Positions 16,358 to 32,690 of a DNA stretch of 45,442 nucleotides are shown piece after piece. Both the position numbers and the translations under genes were made by a program. Each line of letters opens with the position of its first letter. Within the stretch, counting starts at the first letter, position 1. This DNA is from Candidatus Kerfeldbacteria bacterium CG08_land_8_20_14_0_20_43_14 (GTDB taxonomy: Bacteria; Patescibacteriota; Patescibacteriia; PEXW01), in assembly GCA_002774575.1 (NCBI GenBank), contig PEXW01000013.1:1-45442 (forward strand). The letters run 5' to 3'. Below the pieces are notes generated by a model, which was not told where the DNA came from, made no database searches, and worked only from the letters and a program-made list of their open reading frames with translations.

Positions 16358-19060
16358 ATGGGAATAATTAACAAAATTTTTGGCAACCCAAATGATAAAG
16401 TCGTAAAGGACTTGGAGCCTTTGATTAGGCAGATTAATGCTCTGGAAAATGAAGTAAAGGACTATCCTGATTCAAAATTTTCAGAAAAAACCAAGGAGTT
16501 TTACGGACGCTTCCTCAAAGGCGAATCTTTGGATAAGTTATTGCCCGAAACTTTTGCTTTAGTCAGAGAAGCTGCCAAACGGACACTCGGCCAGAGGCAT
16601 TTTGATGTCCAGTTGATGGGCGGTATAGTTTTACATCAGGGCAGAATTTCAGAAATGCGGACTGGTGAAGGAAAAACTTTAGTTGCCACTTTGCCGGCTT
16701 ACCTGAACGCAATCACGGGTAAAGGCGTCCATGTGGTTACAGTCAATGACTATTTGGCCAAACGCGATACCCGTTGGATGGGGCAAATTTATCATTTCCT
16801 CGGCCTTTCTGTGGGCACAATCCAGCATGAAGCGGCATTTGTCTATGATCCGGATTTTGAAGGCGATGAATTTACCAAAAATTTGCGGCCGGTTGACCGC
16901 ACTACTGCTTATAAGGCGGACATTACTTATGGCACCAATAATGAATTCGGTTTTGATTATTTGCGCGATAATATGGTCCCAGATCCCCAATATCTGGCCC
17001 AGCGGGAATTGGTATATGCCATTGTCGATGAAGTTGATTCAATTTTGATAGATGAAGCCAGAACGCCTTTAATTATTTCTGGCCCGTCAGACACGCCCAG
17101 CGAGCAGTATTATCGTTTTGCGGATTTGGTTCAAAGATTGGAAGAAGGTCCTGATTATAATGTTGATGAAAAATTACGGGCTTCAACTTTGACCGAAGAA
17201 GGTATTTCTAAAATCGAAGGTTGGTTAGGCATCGGCAATATCTATCAGGCTGGAGGCGTGGAAACCGTCCACCATATTGAGCAGGCCTTAAAGGCTCATG
17301 CGCTTTTTAAACGGGACCGAGATTATGTTGTCAAGGATAATGAAGTAATTATCGTTGATGAATTTACTGGTAGGCTTATGCATGGCAGACGTTATTCCGA
17401 AGGCCTGCATCAGGCCATTGAAGCCAAAGAGCATGTTGAAATTAAGCAAGAGTCTCAAACTTTAGCCACTATCACCTTTCAAAATTATTTTAGAATGTAT
17501 AAAAAGCTGGCAGGCATGACTGGCACGGCCGCCACCGAAGCCGAGGAATTTTCGAAAATTTATAATTTAGAAGTCGTCAGTATCCCCACTAATAAACCCA
17601 TGGTCAGAAAAGACTCGGCTGACAGTGTCTATAAAACTGAAATGGGCAAATATGAAGCAATAGTCAGAGACATTAAAATCAGACACGACCAGGGTCAGCC
17701 GATTCTGATCGGTACAATTTCAATTGCCAAAAATGAGATGCTAAGCCAGTTATTGCAGCGGGAAGGCATACCCCATGAATTATTAAATGCCAAAAACCAT
17801 GAAAAAGAAGCTGGAGTAATTTCCCAAGCTGGCCGTTTAGGTGCGGTTACAGTGGCCACGAACATGGCCGGAAGAGGCGTAGATATTATCCTGGGAGGCA
17901 ACCCCTTAAAACCAGAAGAGGCGAAAAAGGTCAAAGAACTGGGCGGCTTACATGTGATTGGCACAGAAAGGCACGAATCCAGGCGCATTGATAATCAGTT
18001 GCGCGGTCGTTCCGGCCGGCAGGGCGACCCGGGCTCATCTCAATTTTTCCTGTCTTTGGAGGATGACCTTATGCGGATTTTTGGCGGCGACAGGGTTAAA
18101 AGCCTGATGGAAAGACTGCACGTGCCAGAAGATATGCCTATTGAAAATAAAATGATTTCCCGTTCGATTGAAGGCGCGCAGAAAAAAGTTGAAGGTCATA
18201 ACTTTGACATCCGCAAACATTTGGTGGAATACGATGATGTAATTAACAAACATCGTGAGGTTATTTATTCCCGGCGCCGCGATGTTTTGAATTGCTTGTC
18301 CGAACCAGCCGGCCGCAAAGAAACCATTTTGCAAGCTCTGAACGATGAAATAAATCAAATCGTTTCAACCCACACCTCGGGTGAAAAAGAAGATCAGTGG
18401 AATTTGGATGAAATTTACGAATCGGTTGATTCAATTTTTTCCATCCCCCTGCAAGCCAGACTGAAATTGGAATCTTTCAGGCAGGAGGCCAGCACAGTCA
18501 GCTCAACTGCTGCGACTCGAAACGCCATCACCGAGCATCTTCAAAAAATGCTACAGGAAGCTTATACCAAGCTGGAAAAGGAAGTTAATGAAACGCCGGC
18601 TGGACGGGAAGCCCAAAGTCAGAATCAAAATTTGATGCGCCTGGTTGAAAGAGCGGTGGAACTACGGGTTATTGACACCTTATGGATTGAACATCTGGAT
18701 TTGATGGATCACCTGCGGCAAGGCATTGGCTTAAGGGGCTATGGTCAAAGAGATCCTTTGGTTGAATATAAAAAAGAATCTTATCTCTTGTTTAGCCAAT
18801 TGCTTGGCACAATCCGTTCGCAATTAGTTCACACCATTTTTAAAGCCCGGGTTTCCCAGAGCATGGTTGAACAACAGCAAGCCCAGTCAAAAAATTTAAC
18901 CTTGTCCGCGCCAGCCAAAGAAGCTTCGGAAAGTAATTTCACTTCTGCACCGCAAGTTTCGCAAAGCTCAACCAATCCTTATGCCAATCAAAAAATCGGG
19001 CGCAATGATCCTTGCCCTTGTGGAAGCGGTAAGAAGTATAAAAAGTGCCATGGGGCGTAG
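16358..19060 (+). CDS. secA: preprotein translocase ATPase SecA
   Basis: Motifs [32 protein letters not shown] and [10 protein letters not shown], plus the C-terminal zinc motif [14 protein letters not shown]. Confidence 0.97.
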
Positions 19061-19063
19061 GGT

Positions 19064-19495
19064 ATGGAACATCTAGCAATAATGAGAAAATCATGGGGAT
19101 TCACTGATAAAATTCTAAATGGTCAAAAGAAAATTGAATCCCGCTGGTATTCTGTAAAGTGCAAGCCCTGGAGTGCAATTAAACAAGGAGAAACGATTTA
19201 TTTTAAAGATTCAGGTGGGCCTGTAAGAGTAAAAGCAAAAGTTAGTAAAGTAATGCAATTTTCAAATTTGACTCCGAAAATAGTAAAAGAAATCCTAAAC
19301 GGATATGGCGAGCAAGATGGGATAGAAAAAGGAAAATCCCGCCAATTTTTTGAAAGATTCAAAGACAAGAAATACTGTCTGCTCATATTCTTAAAGAACC
19401 CTATTGAAATAAGGCCATTTGAGATTGATAAAATTGGATTTGGGATGATGTCGGCTTGGATTACAACCGACAATATATCCAGGATTAAGAAATAA
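19064..19495 (+). CDS. ASCH (PUA-like) domain protein
   Basis: 143 aa. The ILNGQKKIESRW motif and overall size fit the ASCH fold. It starts 3 nt after the secA stop. Confidence 0.55.
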   Translation: MEHLAIMRKSWGFTDKILNGQKKIESRWYSVKCKPWSAIKQGETIYFKDSGGPVRVKAKVSKVMQFSNLTPKIVKEILNGYGEQDGIEKGKSRQFFERFKDKKYCLLIFLKNPIEIRPFEIDKIGFGMMSAWITTDNISRIKK

Positions 19496-19555
19496 TTTCC
19501 GCGGTTAATTATTAAAAATCGGAAATATCACGGGGAATAGGGACAAACACTATCT

Positions 19556-20077
19556 ATGAAAATTCCATTATTCAAACAGAAGAAAAATACTTGTGGACTA
19601 ACAGCCTTGAGAATGGTGTTGGCATATTTTGGTGAAAAAATTACAGAAAATGATCTTAAGAAACTTACTGGTAAGATAAGTCGATATGGTGTTAGAACGG
19701 TAAAATTGTCAGAGGCGGCGAAGAAACTTGGGTTTGAAACTGAATGTTTATCATATAACAAGTTACTCGCCGGCAGTAAGGCGAAGATCAAGAAGCCTGA
19801 TGTGAAGGTTGTATTAAAATATCTCTGGAGAAGAATACCGGTGATATTAGCCGTTCGGTCTTCGTTGCTCCACAATAAAAAACTGACTAAAATGGGACAC
19901 TTTATAGTCATTAGAGAATATAGAAATGGTTTTTTCCATTATAACGATCCTATGGATGCTAAAATTCATAAGATTAAATCAGAAGAATTTCGATTCGCTT
20001 GGTTTAATAATGTATTAGATTCGAGTGCTTATTTCCTTGCGATATGGCCGAAAAAATCTCTATGGGCTCACAAATGA
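19556..20077 (+). CDS. stand-alone peptidase C39-like cysteine protease
   Basis: Has Gln8 plus NTCGLTALRMVLAYFG (catalytic Cys), MGHFIVI (His) and YNDP (Asp). There is no fused ABC transporter and no signal peptide. Confidence 0.6.
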   Translation: MKIPLFKQKKNTCGLTALRMVLAYFGEKITENDLKKLTGKISRYGVRTVKLSEAAKKLGFETECLSYNKLLAGSKAKIKKPDVKVVLKYLWRRIPVILAVRSSLLHNKKLTKMGHFIVIREYRNGFFHYNDPMDAKIHKIKSEEFRFAWFNNVLDSSAYFLAIWPKKSLWAHK

Positions 20078-20090
20078 AATCAAAAGTGTC

Positions 20091-20588
20091 ATGGGGAATA
20101 AGCCTATGCAAATAGCTATCTTTACAGAAGGAACAGTATTGATGCACGAAAGTGCTATTGGGCACAATTGTGACGAAATTGTTAAGTAGGTTATAAATAA
20201 GAATCCATCTGTAAGGAATTATGCTAATTATGCATCCATTGCTAATGCAGTAGGCAAAATTCAGAATTGGGTCAATCAAGGTATACAAATTGTTTATATA
20301 ACCTCTCGAAAAAAACAGCAGGAGATAGATGAAATTCAAAATGTTTTTAATCAAAATAATTCCCCAAAAGGACTATTAGAATATCGAAAGGCGAATGAAA
20401 AATATAAAGATGTTGTTGAAAGAATAATGCCAGATATTTTAATTGAAAACGATTGCGAAAGCATCGGTGGACAAAAGGAAATGACAATCACCTTTGTAAA
20501 ACCAAGGGTTAAGCAGAAAATTAAGTCGATTGTCGTGAAGGAGTTTCAGGGAATTGATCATCTTCCAGATAGCATTAATTCCCTTTGA
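20091..20588 (+). pseudogene. conserved-looking ORF (possibly HAD-like fold) interrupted by one in-frame TAG
   Basis: A single frame is open from the ATG at 20091 (alternatively 20106) to the TGA at 20586..20588, apart from a TAG at 20187..20189. The 133 codons after the TAG contain no start codon until far downstream. The sequence IAIFTEGTVL...VYITSRK...DILIENDCE loosely resembles HAD motifs I, II and IV but lacks the nucleophilic Asp. Confidence 0.5.
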
Positions 20589-20650
20589 ACTAAAAACAAA
20601 GAATTACTGTAGCGGACTAGGTTTAAATCAATCAGGTAATGCCTAAAAAG

Positions 20651-20679
20651 TTGACTGAATGTCGTTTTTGTGTTAATAT
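20651..20679 (+). promoter_or_regulatory. sigma70-type promoter with extended -10
   Basis: TTGACT (20651..20656), a 17-nt spacer ending in TGt, then TAATAT (20674..20679), 31 nt upstream of the ATG at 20711. Confidence 0.55.
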
Positions 20680-20710
20680 AAAAATATAAAAGCAAAAATA
20701 AACAACAAAA

Positions 20711-22108
20711 ATGCGAAAAAATCAAGGTATTTTAAAGATTTTGACCATCTGCGCTTTAGGGCTTAATTTTTTTATATTTGCCAAAACCAGTCTGGCCGCC
20801 AGTCCCCAAGCCGGCATTTATGAGTCAAATGGCAAATTAGTCAGGAAAATTTCAAACATCCCGATTGGCGCAAATATCGCTTCAGCCGACTTAAACGATG
20901 ACGGTATTTCAGAATTAATTTACGGGACACCGGCTGGAAAAAATCCTGGCATCCGAATGTTAAACTCTGACGGGCATGTTCTTCGAAACATAAAGCTGGA
21001 AAGCGTAAAAAATAAACCGGCGGTCAGGGTGGCGGTCGGGGATATAAATGGCGATGGTAAAAAAGAGATTGTCGCTGGCTTTGGAAAGGGCACCACGCCT
21101 GAAATCTGGATTTTCGACATTGAGGGTAACCGCTTAAACACCTTTTTTGCTTTTGAAGAAGCTTTTAAAGGCGGCGTATATCTGGATGTCGGCGATGTAA
21201 ACGGCGATAAAATAGATGAAATTATTGTTGCACCTGGCCAAGGCGGCGGTCCTTTGATTAAAATTTTCAATGCCGAAGGAGAAAACATTTTTGGTTTTTG
21301 GGCTTATCCAAAAGAAATAAGGACTGGGGTGATACCTGTTGCTATTGATATTAATAATGATAACCGATTTGAAATTGTTACTACTAAGTTGGAAAAAAAT
21401 TCGCTGGTAAAGATTTTTGAGTCAAACGGAAGTCTAACCTACGCTTTTAAGACTGCCAATGTTTTCCCAAACACTTTAAAGATCAGTAGTCAATCCAGCG
21501 TTGGTTTAGAAAATGAAATCGTGCTTGCTGACGCTCCAGGTACTTCTGCGCAAGTCGTTAGCTACTTGCCTACTGGAAAACCCGGGAATATAAAATTCTA
21601 CCCTTATGGCAAGAATCACACCCAGGGACTTTCCGTGGCAACGGCCAACATTGATAATGATGACGATGCGGAAATAATTATTGTGCCAGTCGGGTCTGAA
21701 CAAATGGATGATAATCCCGGCACAGGAAAACTAATTGTCGTGGACATTTCCGAACAAAAAATGAAAATTTATGAAAACGGTAAGTTGATTAAGGTTCACC
21801 GGGTTTCAACCGGTAAATGGTCAATGCCGACCCCGCTGGGAAATTTTACAGTCAAGAACAAAATGAACACGGCCTATTCACGAAAGTACAGACTGTACAT
21901 GGACAACTGGATGGCGTTTACCGCCGATGGGGCTTATGGCATTCATTCCTTGCCATATTGGAAGCTGAAAAACGGAGGTATTTACTATGAAGGCGTTCAG
22001 CATCTTGGTATTAGAGTTTCCCATGGCTGCATCAGGCTTTCACCAGCTGAATCAAGAGAAGTCTTTAATTGGGCTAATGTTGGTACATCGGTTCGGGTGC
22101 AAAATTAA
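20711..22108 (+). CDS. secreted L,D-transpeptidase (YkuD domain) with an N-terminal FG-GAP/VCBS-type repeat domain
   Basis: Signal peptide (ILTICALGLNFFIFAKTSLAA). At least five Ca-binding-like repeats are present (DLNDDGISELIYG, GDINGDGKKEIVAG, GDVNGDKIDEIIVA, IDINNDNRFEIV, NIDNDDDAEIIIV). The C-terminal YkuD core has GIHS and SHGCIRL, with the catalytic Cys codon at 22028..22030. Confidence 0.8.
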   Translation: MRKNQGILKILTICALGLNFFIFAKTSLAASPQAGIYESNGKLVRKISNIPIGANIASADLNDDGISELIYGTPAGKNPGIRMLNSDGHVLRNIKLESVKNKPAVRVAVGDINGDGKKEIVAGFGKGTTPEIWIFDIEGNRLNTFFAFEEAFKGGVYLDVGDVNGDKIDEIIVAPGQGGGPLIKIFNAEGENIFGFWAYPKEIRTGVIPVAIDINNDNRFEIVTTKLEKNSLVKIFESNGSLTYAFKTANVFPNTLKISSQSSVGLENEIVLADAPGTSAQVVSYLPTGKPGNIKFYPYGKNHTQGLSVATANIDNDDDAEIIIVPVGSEQMDDNPGTGKLIVVDISEQKMKIYENGKLIKVHRVSTGKWSMPTPLGNFTVKNKMNTAYSRKYRLYMDNWMAFTADGAYGIHSLPYWKLKNGGIYYEGVQHLGIRVSHGCIRLSPAESREVFNWANVGTSVRVQN

Positions 22109-22174: not shown

Positions 22175-23869
22175 ATGTCTTCTCGCAAACGTCTTTGGAT
22201 AAATTTTATTTTAATAGTTTTGCTTGGTATTGCCGTCAGTTATATTGCTTTACCAAAAAAACTACTGCCAAGTTTTAAAGTTTTCGGCAAACAATTTGAT
22301 TTAAGGTTAGGCCTGGATTTACAGGGCGGCTCTTCTTTGGTATATAAAGCTGATACTTCAAAAATCGCCAGTGGAGATCAGGCTGCGGCTTTAGAAAGCG
22401 CGCGGAATGTCATTGAGACCAGGGTTAACGCTTTCGGCGTTTCCGAGCCAGTGGTTCAAACCAGCCAGGTTGGTAGTAGCTGGAGAATCATTGTTGAGCT
22501 GGCCGGGATTAAAGACATCAACCAGGCTATTAAAATGATCGGCGACACGCCGATTCTGGAGTTTAAAGAAGTCGCTGACAGCCAGCCACAAACTGAAGAG
22601 CAAAAAAAAGCTCAAGCCGCGGCTGATGCAGGCGTTAAGACAGAAGCTGAAAAAGTTTTGAAAGAAGCTTTGGCAAAAAATGCGGATTTTTCGGCGTTGG
22701 CCAATCAGTATTCCCAAGACCCAAGCAACACTGGAACCGACGGCCAAAAAAAGGGCGGTGATTTGGGCTTTGCCAAAAAAGGAACTTTTGTGGCTGAATT
22801 TGAAAAAGTGCTTTTTGATGAATTAAAAGATGGCCAGGTTTACCCAAAGCTGGTTAAAACACAATTCGGCTATCATATTATCAAAAGAATTGAAACTAAA
22901 ACTGTACAGGAGGAGGGTAAGGATGTGGTGGAAGTCAGAGGCGCTCATATTTTATTTGCAGTCAGTACCGAGCAAAACCAGGTGAATTTTAAAACAACCG
23001 GTCTTTCAGGTAAGCAGTTGAAAAGGGCGGGTGTGGCCTTTAATCAGTCAACTGGCGAACCAGAAGTTACCCTAAGTTTTGACAGCGAAGGAACAAAACT
23101 GTTTGCCGAAATCACCAAAAGGAATATCGGCAAAAATGTAGCAATCTTTTTGGACGGGCAGATAATCAGCAACCCAACAGTCAATCAGGAAATAACCGGC
23201 GGCGAAGCAGTCATTACAGGCAATTTTACTTTGAAAGAGGCCAAAGACTTGGCCAAGAGGCTTAATGCCGGCGCCTTGCCTGTTCCAGTCAGTTTAATCA
23301 GCCAGCAAACTGTTGGTGCAACTTTGGGCAATGATTCTGTGGCCAGAAGCATTTTTGCCGGACTTTTAGGAGTAATTGTTGTTTCGCTCTTTATGATTAT
23401 TTTCTACCGACTGCCAGGCTTGCTGGCCACTATTGCTTTACTGCTATACACCCTGATAGTTATAGCGATCTTCAAACTTTGGCCAGTAACCTTGACCTTG
23501 GCCGGCATCGCGGGCTTCATTCTTTCCATTGGCATTGCTTTGGATGCCAACATATTAATTTTTGAAAGAACCAAAGAAGAGCTTCACAATGGCAGGCCTT
23601 TGGATGTGGCTATTGAAGAAGGCTTTAAACGGGCCTGGCTTTCAATCAGAGATTCAAATGTTTCCAGCATTATAACTTCAGTTATCTTAATTTGGTTTGG
23701 TTCCAGCATTGTTAAAGGCTTTGCCATTACCCTGCTGATTGGTATTGTGGTTAGTTTGTTTTCAGCCATAACCGTTACCCGTATGTTATTGAGGCTCGTG
23801 ACTAATTTGAACTTTGCCAGAAATCCAAAATGGTTTGGGCTTCGGGATTTGTTTAAACCTAAAGATTAA
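22175..23869 (+). CDS. secD: protein translocase subunit SecD with an inserted parvulin-type PPIase domain
   Basis: SecD N-terminal TM and P1 base (LGLDLQGGSSLVY, VNAFGVSEPVVQ). The P1 head follows (AIFLDGQIISNPTV, RLNAGALPVPV), then the six-TM C-terminal bundle. Residues ~134-266 match PpiC/parvulin (NADFSALANQYSQDP...KKGGDLGFAKKGTFVAEFEKVLF...TQFGYHIIK). Confidence 0.9.
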   Translation: MSSRKRLWINFILIVLLGIAVSYIALPKKLLPSFKVFGKQFDLRLGLDLQGGSSLVYKADTSKIASGDQAAALESARNVIETRVNAFGVSEPVVQTSQVGSSWRIIVELAGIKDINQAIKMIGDTPILEFKEVADSQPQTEEQKKAQAAADAGVKTEAEKVLKEALAKNADFSALANQYSQDPSNTGTDGQKKGGDLGFAKKGTFVAEFEKVLFDELKDGQVYPKLVKTQFGYHIIKRIETKTVQEEGKDVVEVRGAHILFAVSTEQNQVNFKTTGLSGKQLKRAGVAFNQSTGEPEVTLSFDSEGTKLFAEITKRNIGKNVAIFLDGQIISNPTVNQEITGGEAVITGNFTLKEAKDLAKRLNAGALPVPVSLISQQTVGATLGNDSVARSIFAGLLGVIVVSLFMIIFYRLPGLLATIALLLYTLIVIAIFKLWPVTLTLAGIAGFILSIGIALDANILIFERTKEELHNGRPLDVAIEEGFKRAWLSIRDSNVSSIITSVILIWFGSSIVKGFAITLLIGIVVSLFSAITVTRMLLRLVTNLNFARNPKWFGLRDLFKPKD

Positions 23870-23872
23870 AAT

Positions 23873-24775
23873 ATGTACGCTATTATTCAGAAAAGAAGAT
23901 ATTTTTACAGCCTCTCTCTGCTTTTGTTGATCCCAGGTATTTTATCAATGATCATCTGGGGATTTAAATTTGGCATAGATTTTACTGGCGGATCATTACT
24001 GCGTTTGGAATTTTCAAAAAATGTTCCTGCCACGGAAATAATCCAAAGCGCGGCCAAAGACGCTGGCATTAAAAATCTTTCTATTCAAACAACCGAGGAA
24101 AAGGGAATAAGCATGAGATTTGAACCCATTACTAATGACCAAAAGGAAACAATAATCAGCTCACTCAAAAAATACGATGAAAAAATAGTGGAAAGTAGTT
24201 TTGAGACCATAGGTCCAACAATTGGGTCGGAATTAAAAAGAAAATCAATAACCGCCATAGCTATTGTTTTAATTCTGATAGTTTTATATATCAGCTGGGC
24301 CTTCAGAAAAGTATCAGTCGGCCCGGTTCCATCCTGGATTTACGGGGTCAGTGGCATTGTCGCTTTGGTTCACGACCTGGTTATGGTGGTAGGGGCATTC
24401 TCAATTTTTGGGCATTTTTTTGGAATTGAAATAGATGCCCTTTTTGTAACTGCTTTGCTGACTATATTGGGCTTCTCAGTCCATGACACCATAGTTGTTT
24501 ATGATCGAATCCGCGAGAGATTAATTGGCTCGGCTGGCAAAACTTACGAAGAGGTCGTTAATGAAAGTATGAATCAGACTATGGTCAGATCAATCAATAC
24601 TTCCATGACAGCATTGCTAATTTTGTCCGCCTTGGTTTTGTTTGGCGGAGGCACCATAAGGAATTTTGTGCTAGCCCTTTTAATTGGAATTGCTTCAGGG
24701 ACTTATTCTTCAATTTTTGTAGCTTCGCCTATTTTAGTAACCTGGAACAATTTTAGGCAAAGAAGAAAAACTTAA
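23873..24775 (+). CDS. secF: protein translocase subunit SecF
   Basis: Has the GIDFTGG motif and a six-TM RND-like bundle. It starts 3 nt after secD. Confidence 0.9.
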   Translation: MYAIIQKRRYFYSLSLLLLIPGILSMIIWGFKFGIDFTGGSLLRLEFSKNVPATEIIQSAAKDAGIKNLSIQTTEEKGISMRFEPITNDQKETIISSLKKYDEKIVESSFETIGPTIGSELKRKSITAIAIVLILIVLYISWAFRKVSVGPVPSWIYGVSGIVALVHDLVMVVGAFSIFGHFFGIEIDALFVTALLTILGFSVHDTIVVYDRIRERLIGSAGKTYEEVVNESMNQTMVRSINTSMTALLILSALVLFGGGTIRNFVLALLIGIASGTYSSIFVASPILVTWNNFRQRRKT

Positions 24776-24883: not shown

Positions 24884-26008
24884 ATGGATAGTGATAATCA
24901 AAATACCGGTTCAATTTTAGACCGAGTATTAAGCCAAAAACAAACTGAAGAAATTGAGCATTTCAACCCGGTTGAAGTCGTTTCTAATATCTTGAAAATT
25001 TTGTCAACGAGAGAAGAAGATGTTTTGCGCAGGCGCTATGGCATAAACGGTAAAGAGGCAGAGACATTGGAACAAATTGGAGAAATTTACAAAGTCACCC
25101 GGGAACGGATCAGACAGATTGAAACCGAGGCGATAAACAAAATTAAAAAGTCTAATCAGACTGGCGGTCAAATTCATCATTTATCTGACGCAATTATTGG
25201 CATAATAAATAACCATGGGGGAATAATGAAAGAAGAGAACTTTATGAGAGAAATTTTAGATCTTCAGGATGACAGACAAACCACCAGGGCTGCGACACTT
25301 TTCATCATCCGTTTTTTGTTTTCTGACAAGCTGAAGCCCCTTTCCGTTGAAGGTGATTTTCATATGGCCTGGCAATTAAAAACCGCGCCCACGCACTTAG
25401 TTGCAGACACAATTCAACAAGCGGAAGAGATATTAAGTTCTGGAAACAAGCCGCTAAAACTCAATGAACTTTTGGAAAAAATCAGACAATCAAAATATGG
25501 TGAAGAGCACAAATTTCAATTAACTGATGAGGCTATTTCTTCGTATATAGAAATAAGTACCAAGCTTGCCAAGAATCCTTACGGCGAATATGGGTTAGCT
25601 GAATGGGGGACAATAGTTCCCAAAAGAATGAATGACAAAATTTATTTAGTTTTGAAAAAAGCCGGCAAGCCTTTGCATTTCAACGAAATAACTAAATTGA
25701 TCAACGAAACAAAGTTCGACCATCGAACTGCTTATTCGCCAACTGTGCATAATGAACTAATTTTAAATGACCAGTATGTTTTAGTCGGCCGTGGTATTTA
25801 TGCTTTAAAAGAATGGGGCTATAAGCCTGGGGTGGTAGCCGATATCCTGATTGATATATTAAAAAAGAGCAACAAGCCGATGAAAAAGGAAGAATTGGCA
25901 GATGAAGTATTAAAACAAAGATTAGTAAAAAAGAATACTATTTATCTTGTTCTAACTAACCGAAAAAAATTCAACAAGCTGCCAAGCGGCGAATATACTC
26001 TTGTTTAG
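24884..26008 (+). CDS. sigma70 region-4 HTH fused to tandem HARE-HTH-like winged helices (no sigma regions 1-3)
   Basis: Residues ~40-88, EEDVLRRRYGINGKEAETLEQIGEIYKVTRERIRQIETEAINKIKK, form a sigma region 4.2 signature. Three or four units follow that resemble the RNAP delta-subunit/HARE-HTH pattern. The clearest is KIYLVLKKAGKPLHFNEITKLI...NDQYVLVGRGIYALKEWGY; another ends ...YGEYGLAEWG. Confidence 0.7.
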   Translation: MDSDNQNTGSILDRVLSQKQTEEIEHFNPVEVVSNILKILSTREEDVLRRRYGINGKEAETLEQIGEIYKVTRERIRQIETEAINKIKKSNQTGGQIHHLSDAIIGIINNHGGIMKEENFMREILDLQDDRQTTRAATLFIIRFLFSDKLKPLSVEGDFHMAWQLKTAPTHLVADTIQQAEEILSSGNKPLKLNELLEKIRQSKYGEEHKFQLTDEAISSYIEISTKLAKNPYGEYGLAEWGTIVPKRMNDKIYLVLKKAGKPLHFNEITKLINETKFDHRTAYSPTVHNELILNDQYVLVGRGIYALKEWGYKPGVVADILIDILKKSNKPMKKEELADEVLKQRLVKKNTIYLVLTNRKKFNKLPSGEYTLV

Positions 26009-26032
26009 TCATTCAAAACAAACTAATCAAAC

Positions 26033-27574
26033 ATGGTAATTGATCTTTCGGCCATGGCTGATGCTTTCCGAGCTTCGGCTGGCAATCCAGTTTTAATGAT
26101 GTGGTTTATCTTCCAAAATGGAGGCTGGCTTGCTGTTGTTATCACTTTTGTAATCGGTTTTAAATATGTTTGGAGAGATTTTATTAACCGCCGGTACATA
26201 AACAAATACTACGCCGGCCATTATGTGCTTTTAGCCATTGATGTGCCAAAGGACAGTGAACAAACGCCAAAAGCGGCTGAACAGATGTTCGCGCATTTTA
26301 ACGGCATTTCTAAACAGCCGATTTTTCCGGAAAAATGGGGTCTGCCTTTCACGGGATTTTTTGGTTATGGTTTCATTCCGCCAAGCATGTCAGTTGAAAT
26401 AGTCAGTTTAGGTGGTTATGTGCAGTTTTTTGTCAGGTGCTTGATAGTCCATCGAGAAATTATTGAATCAGCCATTTACGCGCAATATCCCGACGCGGAA
26501 ATCACTGAAGTCGAAGATTATGTCGATTTAATGCCCAAACCAAGCGAATTGCCGCATGAGGAGTGGGATTGTTGGTCAGCGCAAATTCAGCTTTTTCAGC
26601 CGGATTGCTATCCAATCCGTACTTACCCCATGTTTGAACACAGCATGTCCCAAAAGCTGATAGACCCCATGGCATCGCTTCTGGAAATTATGAATCGCAT
26701 TAGTCCGGATGAGCAAATTTGGCTGCAATGGGTTTTACAGCAGGAGGAATTCCCGTCGATTTGGCGGGAAAAAGCCAAGCAAATTGTCAGTAAACTTATT
26801 GGCAGGAAAAGTGGGGCAAAGGCCAGTCCTTTTGAAATACCTTTGCAGGTGGTTAAAGGCGTAAGGGAATCTATCACCGCATCTTTGCTGCCTATTACTC
26901 ACGAACAGGAAAAGTTTAAAAAGGATGAACCCCCAACCCTGATGTTACATTTGTCGCCTGGAGAAAGAGACACCGTTACTCAGCTTCAGATGAAGCTGAC
27001 AAAAATTGCCTTTAAGGTAAAGGGCAGATTTATTTATTGGGGCAAAACCACGCCTGGTCCTGACGGCATTAAGCCCTACAGCAAAGCCAGGGGAGTGAAC
27101 GGCGTAAATGGAGCTTTAAGGCAATTTGCTTTGCAAGATTGTAACTTTTTTACTTTCAACGCAAAGACAAAGACCAGTGATATTGTGGTACTAAAAGAAC
27201 AACGTCTGCTTTGGCGAAGGCAAAGAAATTTAATTAATTACAGGTTCAGATCAATCTGGCGCGGCCGTAAACCCATGTATTTAAACATCGAGGAGCTGGC
27301 AACAATTTTTCATTTCCCGACCATTGATGTTAAGGCTGGGCAAGTGCAAAAAACTGAAACTAAACGATCAGGCGCGCCGTCTACTTTACCTTTTGAAAGG
27401 CCTTTGCCTATTCAAAAAGTCCATTCAGTATCTTTGCAACCAAAGGCCGGTCCGCCAATCGGTCTGCCTACTGAACCTCCAAAAACTTCGCCGGCAGTTC
27501 AACCACAGCAAAATGTTCAGCAGCCTGCCATTAAAGAACCCGAGGTGCCGGTTAATCTACCTTTTATAGAATAA
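26033..27574 (+). CDS. membrane-anchored protein of unknown family, partner of the downstream ATPase
   Basis: 513 aa with an N-terminal hydrophobic segment (VLMMWFIFQNGGWLAVVITFVIGF). A ~400-aa globular part follows with no motif I recognise, then a Pro/Gln-rich tail. The gene ends 1 nt before the ATPase start. Confidence 0.6.
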   Translation: MVIDLSAMADAFRASAGNPVLMMWFIFQNGGWLAVVITFVIGFKYVWRDFINRRYINKYYAGHYVLLAIDVPKDSEQTPKAAEQMFAHFNGISKQPIFPEKWGLPFTGFFGYGFIPPSMSVEIVSLGGYVQFFVRCLIVHREIIESAIYAQYPDAEITEVEDYVDLMPKPSELPHEEWDCWSAQIQLFQPDCYPIRTYPMFEHSMSQKLIDPMASLLEIMNRISPDEQIWLQWVLQQEEFPSIWREKAKQIVSKLIGRKSGAKASPFEIPLQVVKGVRESITASLLPITHEQEKFKKDEPPTLMLHLSPGERDTVTQLQMKLTKIAFKVKGRFIYWGKTTPGPDGIKPYSKARGVNGVNGALRQFALQDCNFFTFNAKTKTSDIVVLKEQRLLWRRQRNLINYRFRSIWRGRKPMYLNIEELATIFHFPTIDVKAGQVQKTETKRSGAPSTLPFERPLPIQKVHSVSLQPKAGPPIGLPTEPPKTSPAVQPQQNVQQPAIKEPEVPVNLPFIE

Positions 27575-27575
27575 A

Positions 27576-29216
27576 ATGCTTTTCGACCCAAAAGAAATAA
27601 ATGTTTTCGCTCAAACAAATTACCGGGGTTATTACCGGCGTTTTGGCATTAAAGTTGACGATCGCAGGAGGCACATGTACTTAATCGGAAAAACCGGCAT
27701 GGGCAAGTCCACGGTTATGGAAAGGATGATTGTCAATGATTTAAATGCGGGACATGGCTTGGCCCTGGTGGATCCGCATGGAGATTTGGTTGAGAAAATT
27801 TTGGATTACGTACCTTCGGAAAGGATTAATGATGTGGTTTATTTTAATCCGTCAGATGTCGAGTATCCCATAGGCTTTAATGTCCTGGAGGCTGTTGATG
27901 CCACCCAAAGGCATTTAGTCGCTTCGGGTTTAATGGGCGTGTTTACAAAAATTTGGGAAGGAGTTTGGAGCGCCAGAATGGAATATATTTTGAACAACAC
28001 AATTCTAGCCCTGCTGGAATATCCCGGGTCTACCATGCTTGGCATTGCCCGCATGCTGGTTGATTCCAGATTCCGAACGCGGGTTCTGACTAAAGTATCC
28101 GACCCGATTGTCAAGGGCTTTTGGGTGGATGAATTCGCCAACTACAATGACAAATTCAGGAATGAAGCGGTTGCGCCAATACAAAATAAAGTTGGTCAGT
28201 TTTTGTCTAGCGCCATCATTCGCAATATAGTCGGTCAGGCAAAAAGCACCATTGACCTGCGCCATATCATGGACAGCAAAAAAATACTGCTTTTAAATTT
28301 GGCCAAAGGCAGAATTGGCGAAGATAATTCGGCTTTGCTTGGAGCCATGATGATCACCAGGCTGCAATTAGCCGCCATGAGCCGGGTTGACATGCCTGAA
28401 ACCGAGCGGCCAGACTTTTTCTTGTATGTTGATGAGTTTCAGAATTTCGCCACGGAAAGTTTTGCCAATATCTTGTCCGAAGCCAGAAAATACCGATTGA
28501 ATTTAACCATCGCTCATCAATATATTGAACAACTAGATGAAACAGTTGCTCCGGCGGTTTTCGGCAATGTTGGAACTATTATGGCTTTCCGGGTTGGCGG
28601 GGCAGATGCGGAGTTTTTGGAAAAGGAATTTTTTCCGACCTTTACCCAGGTTGATTTAGTCAACCTGCCGAAATATGAAGTTTATTTGAAATTAATGATT
28701 GACGGCGTGGCTTCCCAGCCATTTAGCGCCGCCACCCTGCCGCCGGCAGAACTGTTACCAACTAATAATCGAGAAAAAGCCATTAAAGTTTCCAGAGAAA
28801 AATATGCTGAAAACCGTGCCGAGGTCGAAGAAAAAATTTTGCGATGGAGCGGAGTCGAAGATGTTTATCGAGCTTCGGCTGAAGAAGAAAATCAGGCAGT
28901 TGAAAAAGAGGAATCTATTTACCGGGCAGAAGGAAAAAGGAAAAGACCGCCAAAAAATATGTTCCAAAGCCCGGAAGTAACTGTGGAGCCGGTAATAAAT
29001 GTTCCGGAGGCCCCGGCTATAAGTCTGAATGAGCTAACCAAACAGACCCAGCCCCAGCCTTTTAGAGGAAACCGGCCATATCATCGCAATCAAAATTTTC
29101 GACCTAATCATCCGCCAGAACGGAGGCAAGAAAACTTCCCAGTTATCCAGCCACCGCAGCAAAAACCGCAGCCCAAAGATACTGAAATTCCTTTTGGTAA
29201 AACAGTCAGGTTTTAA
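27576..29216 (+). CDS. FtsK/HerA/VirD4 (type IV coupling protein)-class P-loop ATPase without a TM anchor
   Basis: Walker A LIGKTGMGKST, then LVDPHGDL, Walker B FFLYVDEFQNF and LTIAHQ. There is no N-terminal hydrophobic segment. The C-terminal ~80 aa are Pro/Gln/Arg/Asn-rich. Confidence 0.8.
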   Translation: MLFDPKEINVFAQTNYRGYYRRFGIKVDDRRRHMYLIGKTGMGKSTVMERMIVNDLNAGHGLALVDPHGDLVEKILDYVPSERINDVVYFNPSDVEYPIGFNVLEAVDATQRHLVASGLMGVFTKIWEGVWSARMEYILNNTILALLEYPGSTMLGIARMLVDSRFRTRVLTKVSDPIVKGFWVDEFANYNDKFRNEAVAPIQNKVGQFLSSAIIRNIVGQAKSTIDLRHIMDSKKILLLNLAKGRIGEDNSALLGAMMITRLQLAAMSRVDMPETERPDFFLYVDEFQNFATESFANILSEARKYRLNLTIAHQYIEQLDETVAPAVFGNVGTIMAFRVGGADAEFLEKEFFPTFTQVDLVNLPKYEVYLKLMIDGVASQPFSAATLPPAELLPTNNREKAIKVSREKYAENRAEVEEKILRWSGVEDVYRASAEEENQAVEKEESIYRAEGKRKRPPKNMFQSPEVTVEPVINVPEAPAISLNELTKQTQPQPFRGNRPYHRNQNFRPNHPPERRQENFPVIQPPQQKPQPKDTEIPFGKTVRF

Positions 29217-29374: not shown

Positions 29375-30325
29375 ATGAAGATAAACTCCATATCGTTTGT
29401 TGCACCTGCATTTAACGAAAGGCCAAGCTTGCTAGAATTAATCGCAGAGCTCCATCAAACCGGTGCGAAACTGGATATTCCTTATGAGATTATCATTGTT
29501 GATGATGGGTCAAACGATGGCAGTTTTGAATTTTTGAAAAACCAGGCTGGAGTAGATAAAAAATTGCACGTCATTAATCATAGAAAAAAACTGGGCAAAG
29601 CCACTGCTTTGTATTCAGCTTTTCAAAAAGCCAGGGGCGAAATAATCATAACGGTTGACGCGGATTTGCAGAATGATCCGGCGGAAATCCCCAAAATGCT
29701 GGCAAAACTAGATGAAGGCTATGATGTGGTGAGCGGCTGGAAATTTGACCGGCCAGATAACTTGGAAAAGCGGCTTCCATCCAAATTTTTCAACTTCGTA
29801 ACCAGAAAATTAAGCGGTTTGCAACTTCATGATTTTAACTCGGCAATTAAAGTTTACACTCAAGAATCCGCCCGATCGCTAAAATTGTACGGTGAACTGC
29901 ATCGCTATATCCCAGTCTTGTTAAGCAGCCAAGGATTCAAAATTACCGAAGTGCCGACTCATACCCGCCAACGAAAGTATGGCGAAACTAAATATAAGGG
30001 TAAAAGATATTTAAGGGGTCTGCTAGATTTATTAACGGTTTTATTTTTAACCAGGTATGATCGTCGGCCCTTGCACCTATTTGGCGGGCTGGGTTTATTT
30101 TTAGGCCTTGTCGGCACGATAGTTTTAATCTATCTGGCGATTTTGCATTTCGGATTTAATCAGTCAATTGGCACCAGGCCGTTATTGATGTTCGGAATTT
30201 TTGTGGCCTTGGTTGGTCTTCAGTTGACTTTTACCGGTCTATTGGCTGAACTTTTGGTCCGATCAGAAAACCATAATAATCTCCCCATACGCGCAGAATG
30301 GAATGGCGATGAACCTTTGGTTTAA
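29375..30325 (+). CDS. GT2 polyprenyl-phosphate sugar synthase (DPM1/GtrB-like) with two C-terminal TM helices
   Basis: Motifs IIVDDGSNDGS and DADLQNDP (DxD), plus C-terminal helices (LHLFGGLGLFLGLVGTIVLIYL, LLMFGIFVALVGLQLTFTGLL). Confidence 0.85.
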   Translation: MKINSISFVAPAFNERPSLLELIAELHQTGAKLDIPYEIIIVDDGSNDGSFEFLKNQAGVDKKLHVINHRKKLGKATALYSAFQKARGEIIITVDADLQNDPAEIPKMLAKLDEGYDVVSGWKFDRPDNLEKRLPSKFFNFVTRKLSGLQLHDFNSAIKVYTQESARSLKLYGELHRYIPVLLSSQGFKITEVPTHTRQRKYGETKYKGKRYLRGLLDLLTVLFLTRYDRRPLHLFGGLGLFLGLVGTIVLIYLAILHFGFNQSIGTRPLLMFGIFVALVGLQLTFTGLLAELLVRSENHNNLPIRAEWNGDEPLV

Positions 30326-32690
30326 ATATAAAAAACAAATCCGACCGATCGCAACAGCAATAATTGTAATTGTTGTTGTTCTATTTTTTGTAAAAGTCCT
30401 CAACAAAAATTGGCAGGATATTTCCGGCAAATTTACCCGCCCAAACATTCTTTGGCTGGCATTAGCGTTTTTTGGTTTTAGCTTTTATTATTTTATCAGG
30501 ATTTTTGCCTGGAAAAACTTAATGAAAGACTTTGGCCATAAACTGACTGTAAAGCAATCCGGCGAAATCATCATGCTCTCTGAATTCACCCGCTATGTGC
30601 CTGGCAATGTCTGGAGTGTCCTGGGTAGAATGGGCCAAAGCGAAAAATACGGGGTTTCCAAAGCCCAATCTTTTTACGCAACTGTCCTGGAGATCCTTTC
30701 GCTTTTATCAGCCGCAGTGGTTATGGGCGGAATTGCAAGTTTTTTCGCTCAAGGTTTGCCAGCTTGGTTTAAGTTCTTGATTTTACTGGGCGCTTTGGCC
30801 GCGGTCTTGATTTTTTGGTTTTCAAAATTATTAAAAAGGGTGGTTGACTGGCTGATCAAAAAATTCGGCTCCAATTCTGAAATTTTAACTTATTCAATAG
30901 CCCAAAATTACAAACTGTTAAGCCTGTTCATATTTGGCTGGTTTGCTTATGCTTTTGGCGGTTTATTTTTAAGTCTGGCTTTTATTAAATCAAATTTTGG
31001 GCAAATGGGGCTAGTCCTGGTGGCCATGCCAATTGGCTGGTTTTTGGGCTTTATTAGTTTTATCACGCCCAGCGGCATAGGTGTTAGAGAAGCCAGCATG
31101 GCCGCTATTTTAGAAGGTTCTTTGGGCGCAACCGGGGTTTTAATAGCTTCTTTAACTCGTCTGGGCGTTACTTTGGTAGAATTTTTTTGGGTTTTGGTCT
31201 TTGCTGGCAGGTACATTAAAAAAATTCTGACCTCCTGCTGGGATTTTATTCGCAAGCCAAAAGCCATTGTCATTATCTTTGCCATAATTTTTGCTGTTTA
31301 TTTTTCCGTCATTACTTGCTTAATGCATTACAAAGTCATTACCGGCCGCTTTGATTTGGGCAATATGGATCAGGTGGTTTGGAATACCAGCCAAGGCAGA
31401 TTTTTTGAATTTACCAATCCTTATGATAAAAATATCGCCTTAAGGTACATTCACCATGCTGATATAATTTTAGTCCTTTTTGCACCGTTGTATTGGTTAT
31501 TCTCAAGCCCTTATGTTTTGCTGGTAGCCCAGGCATGTATTGTGGCTTTTGGCGCTTGGCTGGTATATCGCCTGGCAAAAAAAGTCCTTGGTCATGAATG
31601 GTTATCCGCAATTTTGGCTTTAAGCTATTTACTTTACCCGACCCTGCAAAGAGCAGTGATGTTTGATTTTCATGCTTTAACTTTGGGTGCGACTTTTTCT
31701 GTGGGCATGGTTTTAGCCTATATTGAAAAACGCTGGAAAATTTTTGCCGTGTACGCGATTTTGCTGTACATGTGTAAAGAAGAATTGGTTTTAATGGTCG
31801 CGACTTTTGGTTTGATAATTTTATGGCAGGAACGGAAAGAGTGGCGCAAAGCAATGGTCATTATTTTACTTTCCGCAGCCTATTTTATGCTGAATTTTTT
31901 ATGGCTGATGCCCGCGGCCAGAAGTTGGCAGCCCAGTAAATATAATTATCAGTATGAAACTTTGGGCAATAAGCCAGAAGCCATTACCGCCAATTTAATT
32001 AAAAATCCAAAACTAGTTTTATCTATGGTGGCCGGGGCACAAGCCAGACACCTTTATGCTGGTTTATTAGGACCAGTGGCGTTTTTACCATTGGCAAGCC
32101 CTGCTTGGCTGGCTGTCGCCTGGCCGGATTTTGCAGTTAATTTATTTAATGATCGAATCGAACCAAGATTGCTTAATTACCACTACCAAGCGACTATTAC
32201 GGGTTTTGTTTTTATCTCAACCATATTCGGACTGGCCGCAATCCGCCGCAGGCTGGGGCCCTGGTGGCAAAGGAAAATTCAAAAGAACTCCAAATTTACT
32301 TTAGAAATGCTGCTAATTTTTATCCTCATTGCAACGGCCGCTATTGAATCATATCGTTTAAGCCCTTTGCCTTATTCACGAACCAAAGATATGCGGGTTT
32401 TTTGGCCAGCGCCAATGGCGTCGATAATCAAAGCGGCGGTAAAGCAAATTTCCCGAGACGCTAAAGTTTCAGCAACTAATACGGTCGGGGCGCAGTTGGC
32501 GCATCGCCAATATCTTTATCAATTTCCCCAAGGAGTAGGTGAATCGGATTATATTTTAATTCTAATGGCCAAAGAGGGGACATTGGAATGGCAGCGGAAC
32601 CACACCGTTGCCGCTGATGTAGCCAAAGACCCAAGATATAAGTTGATTGAACAGGTGAAAAATTTTTATTTCTACCAGAAAATTAAGTAA
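30303..32690 (+). CDS. fusion of an LPG-synthase-TM/flippase-like domain (N) and a DUF2079-type polytopic membrane domain (C)
   Basis: Residues 1-~315 are multi-TM and carry TPSGIGVREA, which is typical of the UPF0104/flippase-like family. Residues ~320-795 carry FDLGNMDQVVWNTSQGRFF, which is typical of DUF2079. The gene overlaps the GT2 gene by 23 nt; an alternative ATG is at 30309. Confidence 0.7.
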   Translation: MAMNLWFKYKKQIRPIATAIIVIVVVLFFVKVLNKNWQDISGKFTRPNILWLALAFFGFSFYYFIRIFAWKNLMKDFGHKLTVKQSGEIIMLSEFTRYVPGNVWSVLGRMGQSEKYGVSKAQSFYATVLEILSLLSAAVVMGGIASFFAQGLPAWFKFLILLGALAAVLIFWFSKLLKRVVDWLIKKFGSNSEILTYSIAQNYKLLSLFIFGWFAYAFGGLFLSLAFIKSNFGQMGLVLVAMPIGWFLGFISFITPSGIGVREASMAAILEGSLGATGVLIASLTRLGVTLVEFFWVLVFAGRYIKKILTSCWDFIRKPKAIVIIFAIIFAVYFSVITCLMHYKVITGRFDLGNMDQVVWNTSQGRFFEFTNPYDKNIALRYIHHADIILVLFAPLYWLFSSPYVLLVAQACIVAFGAWLVYRLAKKVLGHEWLSAILALSYLLYPTLQRAVMFDFHALTLGATFSVGMVLAYIEKRWKIFAVYAILLYMCKEELVLMVATFGLIILWQERKEWRKAMVIILLSAAYFMLNFLWLMPAARSWQPSKYNYQYETLGNKPEAITANLIKNPKLVLSMVAGAQARHLYAGLLGPVAFLPLASPAWLAVAWPDFAVNLFNDRIEPRLLNYHYQATITGFVFISTIFGLAAIRRRLGPWWQRKIQKNSKFTLEMLLIFILIATAAIESYRLSPLPYSRTKDMRVFWPAPMASIIKAAVKQISRDAKVSATNTVGAQLAHRQYLYQFPQGVGESDYILILMAKEGTLEWQRNHTVAADVAKDPRYKLIEQVKNFYFYQKIK

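Follow-up and report, generated by a model that had tools for sequence, protein, structure and literature searches.

Prolyl isomerases and other folding catalysts that act at the exit of the Sec channel (PrsA, PpiD/YfgM, SurA, and Mpn444) have so far been separate proteins, and the evidence for their contact with the translocon is usually weak or indirect. PrsA of Bacillus, Staphylococcus, and Listeria is an extracytoplasmic peptidyl-prolyl isomerase (PPIase) of the parvulin type that acts, in monoderm bacteria, on proteins exiting the Sec channel. PrsA is a lipoprotein of its own with an N/C chaperone domain, and the elements of its parvulin domain follow the canonical order, strand β1 first; for the parvulin domain of S. 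aureus PrsA, PPIase activity has been confirmed (PMC2678132). In E. coli, which is a diderm, two reports describe an interaction of the YfgM-PpiD complex with the SecYEG translocon (PMC9643414) and of SurA with the Sec machinery (PMC9987972). These are chaperones with parvulin domains that are stationed on the periplasmic side of the Sec machinery, with which they associate non-covalently, and they carry chaperone domains of the SurA_N type. In Mycoplasma pneumoniae, Mpn444 cross-links to SecD, and Mpn444 and Mpn436 are surface parvulin PPIases that were modelled atop the translocon, so that SecD and a parvulin are functionally paired, although both are large, separate, trimeric lipoproteins and not domains of SecD (bioRxiv 10.1101/2024.09.05.611430). 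Here we analyze the secD gene in a stretch of 45,442 nucleotides from Candidatus Kerfeldbacteria bacterium CG08_land_8_20_14_0_20_43_14 (contig PEXW01000013.1, positions 1 to 45,442; this whole stretch is the window below), whose product carries a parvulin within its own extracytoplasmic P1 domain. Our reading, to which we give a probability of about 0.68, is that this is a genuine SecD of a groundwater bacterium of the Patescibacteria (candidate phyla radiation) with a complete, circularly permuted parvulin where P1-base joins P1-head, and that the insert is most likely a translocon-tethered foldase or holdase.

The other system to compare is SecDF itself. In its working model, the cavity of P1-head contacts the precursor and swings between forms (PMC5974789), and proton flow drives the head out of its membrane-facing forms and into the upright I form (PMC5974789; PMC6028853). 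The window SecD resembles the canonical SecDF of Thermus thermophilus (3AQP and 5YHF) and D. radiodurans (5XAN) in its transmembrane (TM) domain, P1-base, P1-head, Sec_GG motif, TM4 aspartate, and adjacent SecF. It differs in what lies between the two parts of P1. The gene and the parts of the insert are as follows, where pLDDT is the AlphaFold2 confidence score (predicted local distance difference test).

22175-23869, + strand: secD, 564 amino acids, a single uninterrupted open reading frame (ORF) with intact frame and stop codon.
22574-22594, + strand: entry linker ADSQPQT, residues 134-140; poorly conserved, pLDDT ~70.
22595-22891, + strand: parvulin core α1-α2-(α3)-β2-α4-β3-β4, residues 141-239, without the N-terminal β1; PF00639 matches residues 144-239 with profile positions 8-96 of 97.
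22868-22960, + strand: long β4/β1' hairpin predicted by AlphaFold2, residues 232-262; its loop varies in length within the family.
22919-22960, + strand: relocated β1 strand (β1'), residues 249-262, KDVVEVRGAHILFA, which contains His258 and follows β4 instead of preceding α1.
22961-22987, + strand: exit linker VSTEQNQVN, residues 263-271; the least conserved segment, pLDDT down to ~64.

The insert as a whole occupies 22574-22972, which is SecD residues 134-266 (133 residues, ADSQPQT…VRGAHILFAVSTE). It is preceded by GDTPILEFKEV (residues 123-133) and followed by NFKTTGLSGKQL (residues 271-282), and P1-head starts at NFKTTGLSG. An ORF of 118 codons on the opposite strand (22391-22747, − strand) lies within secD and overlaps the start of the insert; it is most likely spurious.

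The T. thermophilus SecDF sequence aligns with the window SecD (phmmer, E = 4.6e-82) in two blocks. Residues 41-134 align with Thermus residues 31 to ~119, and this block ends on a shared strand (VLEFRIV in Thermus, ILEFKEV here). The alignment resumes at residues 277-554, which correspond to Thermus residues 160-437. Thus, the gap falls between VLEFRIV (~119) and LTGADL (160), and between the blocks the canonical protein has ~40 residues whereas the window SecD has ~140, including an entire parvulin domain. Also, the match to the SecDF_P1_head profile begins only at profile position 10. The P1 fold around the insert is still recognized in the predicted structure, with a Foldseek TM-score of 0.70 (normalized by target length) to the isolated P1 domain, 3aqo. 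The alignment therefore puts the insert at the base-to-head junction of P1.

Profile searches identify the insert as a parvulin. In the whole SecD protein, PF00639 (Rotamase) matches residues 144-239 with E = 7.7e-18 (65.7 bits, with a cutoff of 21.7). When the 133 residues are excised, the same family gives E = 4.6e-19 (69.6 bits) and PF13616 gives E = 2.7e-18 (67.1 bits, with a cutoff of 22.5). Of the entries in the PDB, 28 solved parvulins match the insert by sequence at E ≤ 1e-3; PrsA is the closest solved relative (6xd8, E = 2e-12), and other PrsA structures (2jzv, 1zk6, and 4wo7) are followed by SurA, PpiC/Par10, and Par14. An earlier reading of these letters, made from the sequence without database searches (the sequence-only reading), had proposed by eye a parvulin-type PPIase domain between P1-base and P1-head. 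The Pfam and NCBIfam profiles, the PDB sequence matches, and the break in the Thermus alignment all agree with that proposal; both of the families that it had named for a HMMER check of this region match; and each of the strings that it quoted is found in the SecD translation where it had placed them. Together, the profiles and the active-site residues (discussed below) classify the insert as a parvulin of the PpiC type, and the matches are far too strong to be due to chance.

It does not follow that the insert is a known parvulin. Among the NCBIfam models, those for PrsA, PpiC, and SurA are the nearest, with every score far below the equivalog cutoff (for PrsA, the best of NF002846 and its relatives gives 55-56 bits against a cutoff of 361). 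Unlike PrsA, the insert has no chaperone domain or lipobox, is permuted, and is a covalent part of SecD. Nor does any SurA_N family in Pfam match the window SecD, so the chaperone domain that marks PpiD and SurA is missing from it. Because the scores are far below the cutoffs and there is no chaperone domain, we classify the insert as neither PrsA, PpiD, nor SurA.

The insert also departs from these proteins in the order of its elements. The canonical order in a parvulin is β1-α1-α2-α3-β2-α4-β3-β4, and the insert does not have it. The PF00639 match starts at position 8 of the 97 in the profile, so the opening β1 strand, which holds the first of the two active-site histidines, is absent from the N-terminal side, where the sequence is hydrophilic (ADSQPQTEEQKK). 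Instead, a strand, VRGAHILFAV (VVEVRGAHILFAV), lies 17 residues downstream of GYHIIK. This strand with its HIL motif had been noticed after the parvulin block in the sequence-only reading, which suggested from it a circular permutation or a strand swap, and the late start in the profile and the tests described next bear this out at the level of sequence.

If the strand is a relocated β1, then moving it back should improve the match to ordinary parvulins. For the window protein, we placed residues 249-266 ahead of residues 144-243 and compared the result with a control in which the strand was shuffled. The de-permuted sequence scores 76.8 bits and covers Pfam profile positions 1-96, as compared to 69.0 bits for the native order and 70.5 bits for the shuffled control. 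Over its full length it also aligns with 2jzv, the parvulin of S. aureus PrsA (37-43% identity), with RGAHILFAV on KASHILIKV. For the family, we built a hidden Markov model (HMM) from 43 parvulins of canonical order and scored 90 family members. The de-permuted sequence beat the shuffled control in all 90 (mean gain of 6.4 bits) and beat the native order in 89 (gain of 7.2 bits), with the start of the match moving from HMM position 11 to position 1; as the 90 members are related to each other, this is a measure of consistency and not 90 independent trials. When BLASTP was run against a duplicate of the parvulin from S. aureus PrsA, the match passed the junction between the copies, with the strand poorly placed because of the long hairpin; the HMM comparisons and the natural tandem in SurA (below) tell more.

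The strand's position is a feature of the family as well. An x-H-I-L strand follows β4 in essentially all of 120 homologues, while the length of the intervening loop varies, so that the two histidines are 15 to more than 60 residues apart in relatives. Two AlphaFold2 runs, one of the full-length protein with 90 sequences and one of the insert only with 37 sequences, gave the same order of elements, α1-α2-β2-α4-β3-β4-β1', with β4 paired to β1' and a core pLDDT of ~90-95. In the full-length model the core elements are helices at residues 141-165, 172-179, and 207-216 and strands at residues 196-201, 227-229, and 232-246 (pLDDT ~89-94), and the hairpin is formed by strands 232-246 and 249-262 (101-115 and 118-131 in the numbering of the insert-only model). 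Overall, a circular permutation with the order α1-α2-(α3)-β2-α4-β3-β4-β1' is well supported by the sequence comparisons, and the three-dimensional placement of the relocated strand is plausible, given the secondary structure that AlphaFold2 predicts. As the canonical order of elements fails, we file the insert as a permuted variant of the parvulins, not as a canonical member.

Could there be no true permutation? The x-H-I-L strand might be a relic of a lost second parvulin, or a linker, and the remaining module might do without β1 or borrow a strand. The comparison with E. coli SurA shows why this has to be considered. The insert (GYHIIKRIETKTVQEEGKDVVEVRGAHILF) is collinear with the P1-P2 region of SurA, from α1 of its first parvulin domain via β4 of that domain to β1 of the second, and in SurA the corresponding strand is part of the domain that follows. 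Similarly, in relatives of the window SecD with two parvulin modules (described below), the His strand in the middle belongs, according to Pfam, to a canonical second domain, and Foldseek did not recognize the model of the insert as a parvulin (see below). However, both domains of SurA are complete and have a β1 of their own, whereas the insert is one core plus one strand, and the window SecD has no second domain to own that strand. His258, within the strand, is conserved as strictly as His234 in β4, which makes sense only if the two are paired. In both AlphaFold2 runs the strand is the partner of β4 (pLDDT above 90), the hydrophilic N-terminal side offers no hydrophobic candidate to take its place, and a four-stranded parvulin sheet lacking its central strand would presumably be unstable. 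We consider it very improbable that the permutation is only apparent, and we think that a tandem of the SurA type is the kind of source that can give rise to a single domain in permuted form.

The permuted module also seems to exist independently of SecD. Stand-alone, membrane-anchored proteins with SurA_N (SurA_N_3) and a parvulin are found in Patescibacteria (L031:2083-3381, L041:2311-3426, and L066:1385-2434), and stand-alone, membrane-anchored parvulin proteins are found in Acidobacteria (L014:1990-3606, L017:2074-3591, and L072:2209-3558); a further Acidobacteria protein, on L018, belongs with them by its order of elements. Pfam was run on the six other than the L018 protein; their Rotamase match starts at profile positions 11-17, they have no N-terminal His strand, and the x-H-I-L strand comes after GYHIIK. 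In all seven, the x-H-I-L strand follows β4. Because these proteins have the same order, with α1 first and the His strand last, the permuted module does not appear to be an invention of SecD.

Other SecD proteins (650-800 residues) carry two parvulin modules at the same site; neither these nor the permuted modules outside SecD figure in the sequence-only reading. We read nine examples by eye (P0139, P0153, P0162, P0163, P0183, P0143, P0150, P0135, and P0137; 550-700 residues) and scanned six of the nine with Pfam. In all nine, the first module lacks both β1 and the histidine of β4, a His strand opens the second module, and the second module retains GYH. In the six that were scanned, the Pfam match to the second module runs from position 1 to 95-97, which is the canonical order. 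A trailing β1-like strand comes last, and its histidine is lost in seven of the nine. This arrangement suggests that a canonical module may have been placed inside a degenerate permuted one, between its β4 and its closing strand. Three single-module inserts (P0125, P0132, and P0141, of which P0132 is a SecDF fusion of 905 residues) have a low-complexity loop of 50-60 residues, rich in Gly, Glu, and Val, between GWHII and VRASHILI. Hence, the loop of the β4/β1' hairpin appears to be a tolerated insertion point. In a neighbor-joining tree of the SecD backbone, which was rooted at the midpoint without an outgroup or support values and which we use as a lead only, the long inserts are basal and short ones occur in at least three clades. 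This would fit, weakly, an origin of the single permuted inserts by collapse of a tandem.

With the relocated strand included, the insert has the residues of a parvulin active site. The relevant codons are:

22718-22720, + strand: Asp182, which aligns to an Asp in the parvulin domain of S. aureus PrsA.
22859-22861, + strand: Thr229; of 90 family members, 76 have Thr here and 14 have Ser.
22874-22876, + strand: His234, in the GYH of β4, the second histidine of the dual-His motif; invariant (90/90).
22946-22948, + strand: His258, first of the two histidines in the dual-His motif, at its permuted position; His in 89/90.

We take Thr229 to be the counterpart of Pin1 Thr152, and Leu197, Phe205, and Phe209 presumably line the proline pocket. 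Across the 90 members, Thr or Ser at position 229, Leu197, and Phe209 are, like His234, found in every one, and Asp182, like His258, is found in 89; position 205 varies (Phe, Met, Tyr, or Leu). Asp182 corresponds to Cys113 of Pin1, Asp154 of B. subtilis PrsA, and Asp194 of S. aureus PrsA, according to our alignment of the insert with the S. aureus PrsA parvulin and to a study that discusses these residues and the role of the Asp (PMC2678132). The insert and PrsA share the active-site type with Asp for Cys, and the set of residues resembles that of an active parvulin that is not phospho-specific, as in the PrsA/Par10 type.

Several points tell against our reading. First, a Foldseek search of the PDB with the insert-only AlphaFold2 model returned zero parvulins (best E = 0.3). 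The sequence-only reading had looked to a structure search to recover the parvulin fold, and in this respect its expectation failed. The copy of the PDB that was searched contains the 28 parvulin chains that plain sequence search detects. The miss is surprising and may have one of three causes: the fold may depart from that of other parvulins, the permutation and the protruding hairpin may upset the structural alphabet, or the cause may be technical. (The same model gave nothing significant in a Foldseek search of BFVD, a library of viral structures.) Second, parvulins that associate with the translocon or with chaperones are often catalytically inactive; the parvulin domain of PpiD and the P1 domain of SurA are examples. 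Third, the two histidines of parvulins have a structural role as well (PMC2678132), and catalysis does not follow from their conservation alone.

The second and third of these points would be explained if the insert keeps the parvulin fold and works as a non-catalytic surface, either by binding substrates (as a holdase) or as a docking site. The SecD proteins with two modules also fit this explanation: one of their modules has lost both histidines and is clearly non-catalytic, so inactive modules are tolerated at this site. On the other hand, the catalytic set is kept in 89 or 90 of the 90 members of the single-module family, and the closest solved relatives of the insert are the parvulins of PrsA, of which the S. 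aureus one is active (PMC2678132). We regard a purely non-catalytic insert as unlikely, while giving it more than token weight, and we infer both catalytic activity and action on translocating substrates.

The ends of the insert bear on how it might work. The mean column identity is 0.38 for residues 134-143 and 0.33 for residues 263-271, as compared to 0.75-0.80 for the base, the head, and the TM domain (0.76 for the base). In the AlphaFold2 model, the two linkers have the lowest pLDDT of their region. By both measures, the linkers look like flexible tethers. This matters because the insert might mainly regulate or limit the swing of P1-head, or bind some other component of the envelope, instead of acting on secretory substrates. 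The insert does sit exactly at the base/head junction, which has to bend for the change between the F and I forms (PMC5974789), and the loop of its hairpin is hypervariable and sometimes holds long low-complexity insertions. However, linkers that are the least conserved segments suggest tethering and not mechanical coupling, and a regulator would have no need of a full PPIase active site. We think it very unlikely that regulation of the swing, or binding of another envelope component, is the main role.

We propose instead that the insert is a foldase or holdase tethered at the translocon, as follows. P1 would have acquired a parvulin at the base/head junction, joined by a short flexible linker on each side. 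The His-bearing strand would fold back on β4 as a hairpin, which would restore the central sheet and the set of two His, Asp, and Thr. As P1-head captures the chain that emerges from SecYEG, and then swings away, the tethered parvulin would be held at the translocon exit, within reach of that chain. It could then bind the unfolded secretory chain and catalyze prolyl cis/trans isomerization on its release. By analogy, this would be the role that PrsA in Firmicutes, PpiD/YfgM in E. coli, and Mpn444 in Mycoplasma perform in trans.

Could the fusion be an artifact of assembly? The sequence-only reading had offered misassembly as the explanation in case all related SecD sequences should lack the insert. 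The relatives carry it, and independent contigs cross its junctions. Four samples (two ENA assemblies, a Logan run, and a JGI metagenome) together have at least five contigs with the identical 564-residue protein and identical neighbors, and many metagenome runs from groundwater and aquifers contain the stretch. Four other groundwater runs supply separate contigs over the 5' junction (22574) and over the 3' junction (22972), free of joints and indels, and one independent contig (22543-23457) spans the entire insert. We considered a chimeric assembly or a frameshift and rejected it as having a negligible chance, given the single ORF, the identity across four samples, the contigs that span the junctions, and hundreds of homologues.

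The insert is shared by a family of SecD proteins. PF00639 occurs together with the SecD domains in all 120 of the closest homologues (57-84% identity, Patescibacteria), so the insert, whose range the sequence-only reading had wished to see surveyed, is not limited to one sequence. Where homologues have named records, these are called only "protein translocase subunit SecD" and are assigned to Patescibacteria or Candidatus Kerfeldbacteria. In a scan of one genome per species, a parvulin lies between P1-base and P1-head of SecD at 19 loci among the best 80, and the informative labels for these loci are Patescibacteria or Buchananbacteria. An exhaustive HMMER search with residues 100-300, which span both junctions, against 1.84 billion representatives of clusters at 50% identity gave 16 matches with E ≤ 1e-30, and SecD is combined with a parvulin in 66 of the best 150 representatives. 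A few contigs that encode SecD with a parvulin are labelled as something other than Patescibacteria (L011, L005, L002, L007, and L012, with labels of Lysobacteraceae, Bathyarchaeia, Gammaproteobacteria, and Bdellovibrionales). We do not extend the range of the family on this basis and take these labels to be binning or labelling errors in public metagenome-assembled genomes, as the composition does not fit: the "Lysobacteraceae" contig (L011) has a GC content of 29.8%, and the "archaeal" contig (L005) encodes a bacterial SecD.

Outside the insert, the protein is an ordinary SecD. The NCBIfam model for SecD (TIGR01129) scores 399.4 bits, well above its cutoff of 244.4, with residues 45-539 matching profile positions 1-397. 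The Pfam domains along the full-length protein are, in order, Sec_GG (residues 43-62), SecD_1st (74-134), Rotamase (PF00639, between them and the rest), SecDF_P1_head (267-370), and SecD_SecF_C (373-542). The AlphaFold2 model of the full-length protein has a mean pLDDT of 83.8, and its best Foldseek matches are the SecDF structures 5yhf, 5xan, and 3aqp (E = 1e-24 to 5e-21). The remaining features of the protein are:

22181-22249, + strand: TM1, residues 3-25; AlphaFold2 helix 3-25, hydrophobic RLWINFILIVLLGIAVSYIA.
22295-22573, + strand: N-terminal part of P1-base, residues 41-133, with last strand ILEFKEV; Pfam Sec_GG and SecD_1st, aligned with T. thermophilus SecDF 31 to ~119.
22988-23314, + strand: P1-head and return to the base, residues 272-380; SecDF_P1_head at residues 267-370, E = 9.5e-35, aligned with T. 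thermophilus SecDF 160-261.
23330-23806, + strand: TM domain, TM2-6; Pfam SecD_SecF_C, AlphaFold2 helices within residues 386-544.
23543-23545, + strand: Asp457 codon, in the TM domain, aligned with Asp340 of T. thermophilus SecDF.

We take Asp340 of the Thermus protein to be the essential aspartate of TM4, in the proton pathway. Asp457 is invariant among 90 relatives. Because this aspartate is conserved, the motor part of the window SecD is presumably intact. By all of the features tested (the profile, the order of domains, the fold, the TM4 aspartate, and the adjacent SecF), the window protein is classified as SecD.

Two other genes of the Sec machinery are nearby:

23873-24775, + strand: secF, the partner subunit, longest ORF of 300 residues, 3 nucleotides past the secD stop; Pfam SecD_SecF_C (E = 1.4e-58) and Sec_GG.
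16358-19060, + strand: secA, 3 kb upstream of secD; Pfam SecA_DEAD, SecA_PP_bind, SecA_SW, and SEC-C.

The start of secF is ambiguous, as the gene callers in three other assemblies use the position equivalent to 23948 (275 residues). Upstream of secD, and on the same strand, are genes for a C39-like peptidase that is small and stands alone (19556-20077) and for a protein that combines FG-GAP repeats with a YkuD L,D-transpeptidase domain (20711-22108), so that 16358-22108 is a cluster of export and cell-wall genes ahead of secD. Downstream, 24884-29216 encodes a protein of 374 residues with an N-terminal Sigma70 region 4 and a HARE-HTH domain, then an ORF of 513 residues with a proline-rich C terminus and no Pfam match, and then a coupling ATPase similar to TraG, VirD4, and HerA (27576-29216). 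Next to these are a family-2 glycosyltransferase (29375-30325) and, adjoining it, a 795-residue fusion of LPG_synthase_TM and DUF2079 (30303-32690), which is predicted to be a membrane protein. There is no second parvulin gene in the window: an HMM of the insert family, run over all six frames of the 45 kb, matches SecD only.

The sequence-only reading could not place this arrangement in a described family, and a full-text literature search, in which subscription journals were outside the scope, likewise found no paper on a fusion of SecD with a parvulin or on a parvulin that is circularly permuted. As precomputed Pfam annotations display the architecture, databases already know it, though the literature apparently does not. 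What is new is that a known enzyme fold, in permuted form, has been inserted into a known machine. A bolder interpretation, which we offer tentatively and would not yet bet on, is that this is the first case in nature of a prolyl isomerase that forms a covalent part of the Sec machinery, and also the first in nature of a circularly permuted parvulin. It would ride on the P1 arm, which is driven by the proton motive force, and would couple capture and pulling of the chain with its isomerization or holding; it might replace a free foldase of the PrsA or PpiD type in reduced genomes, and it would have originated by collapse of a tandem.

If this is true, then the collapse of a two-module tandem would be a living example of permutation by duplication, and the parvulin fold would gain a permuted member along with plausible tandem intermediates. 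A conserved covalent fusion also provides a "Rosetta stone" argument that SecDF and prolyl isomerases share a substrate at the same moment. As a compact complex of fixed stoichiometry, the fusion would suit structural or single-molecule work on the hand-over from translocon to foldase. Finally, it would be a trait of the cell envelope that is common to many uncultivated Patescibacteria and that has been hidden by the annotation of these proteins as plain "SecD."

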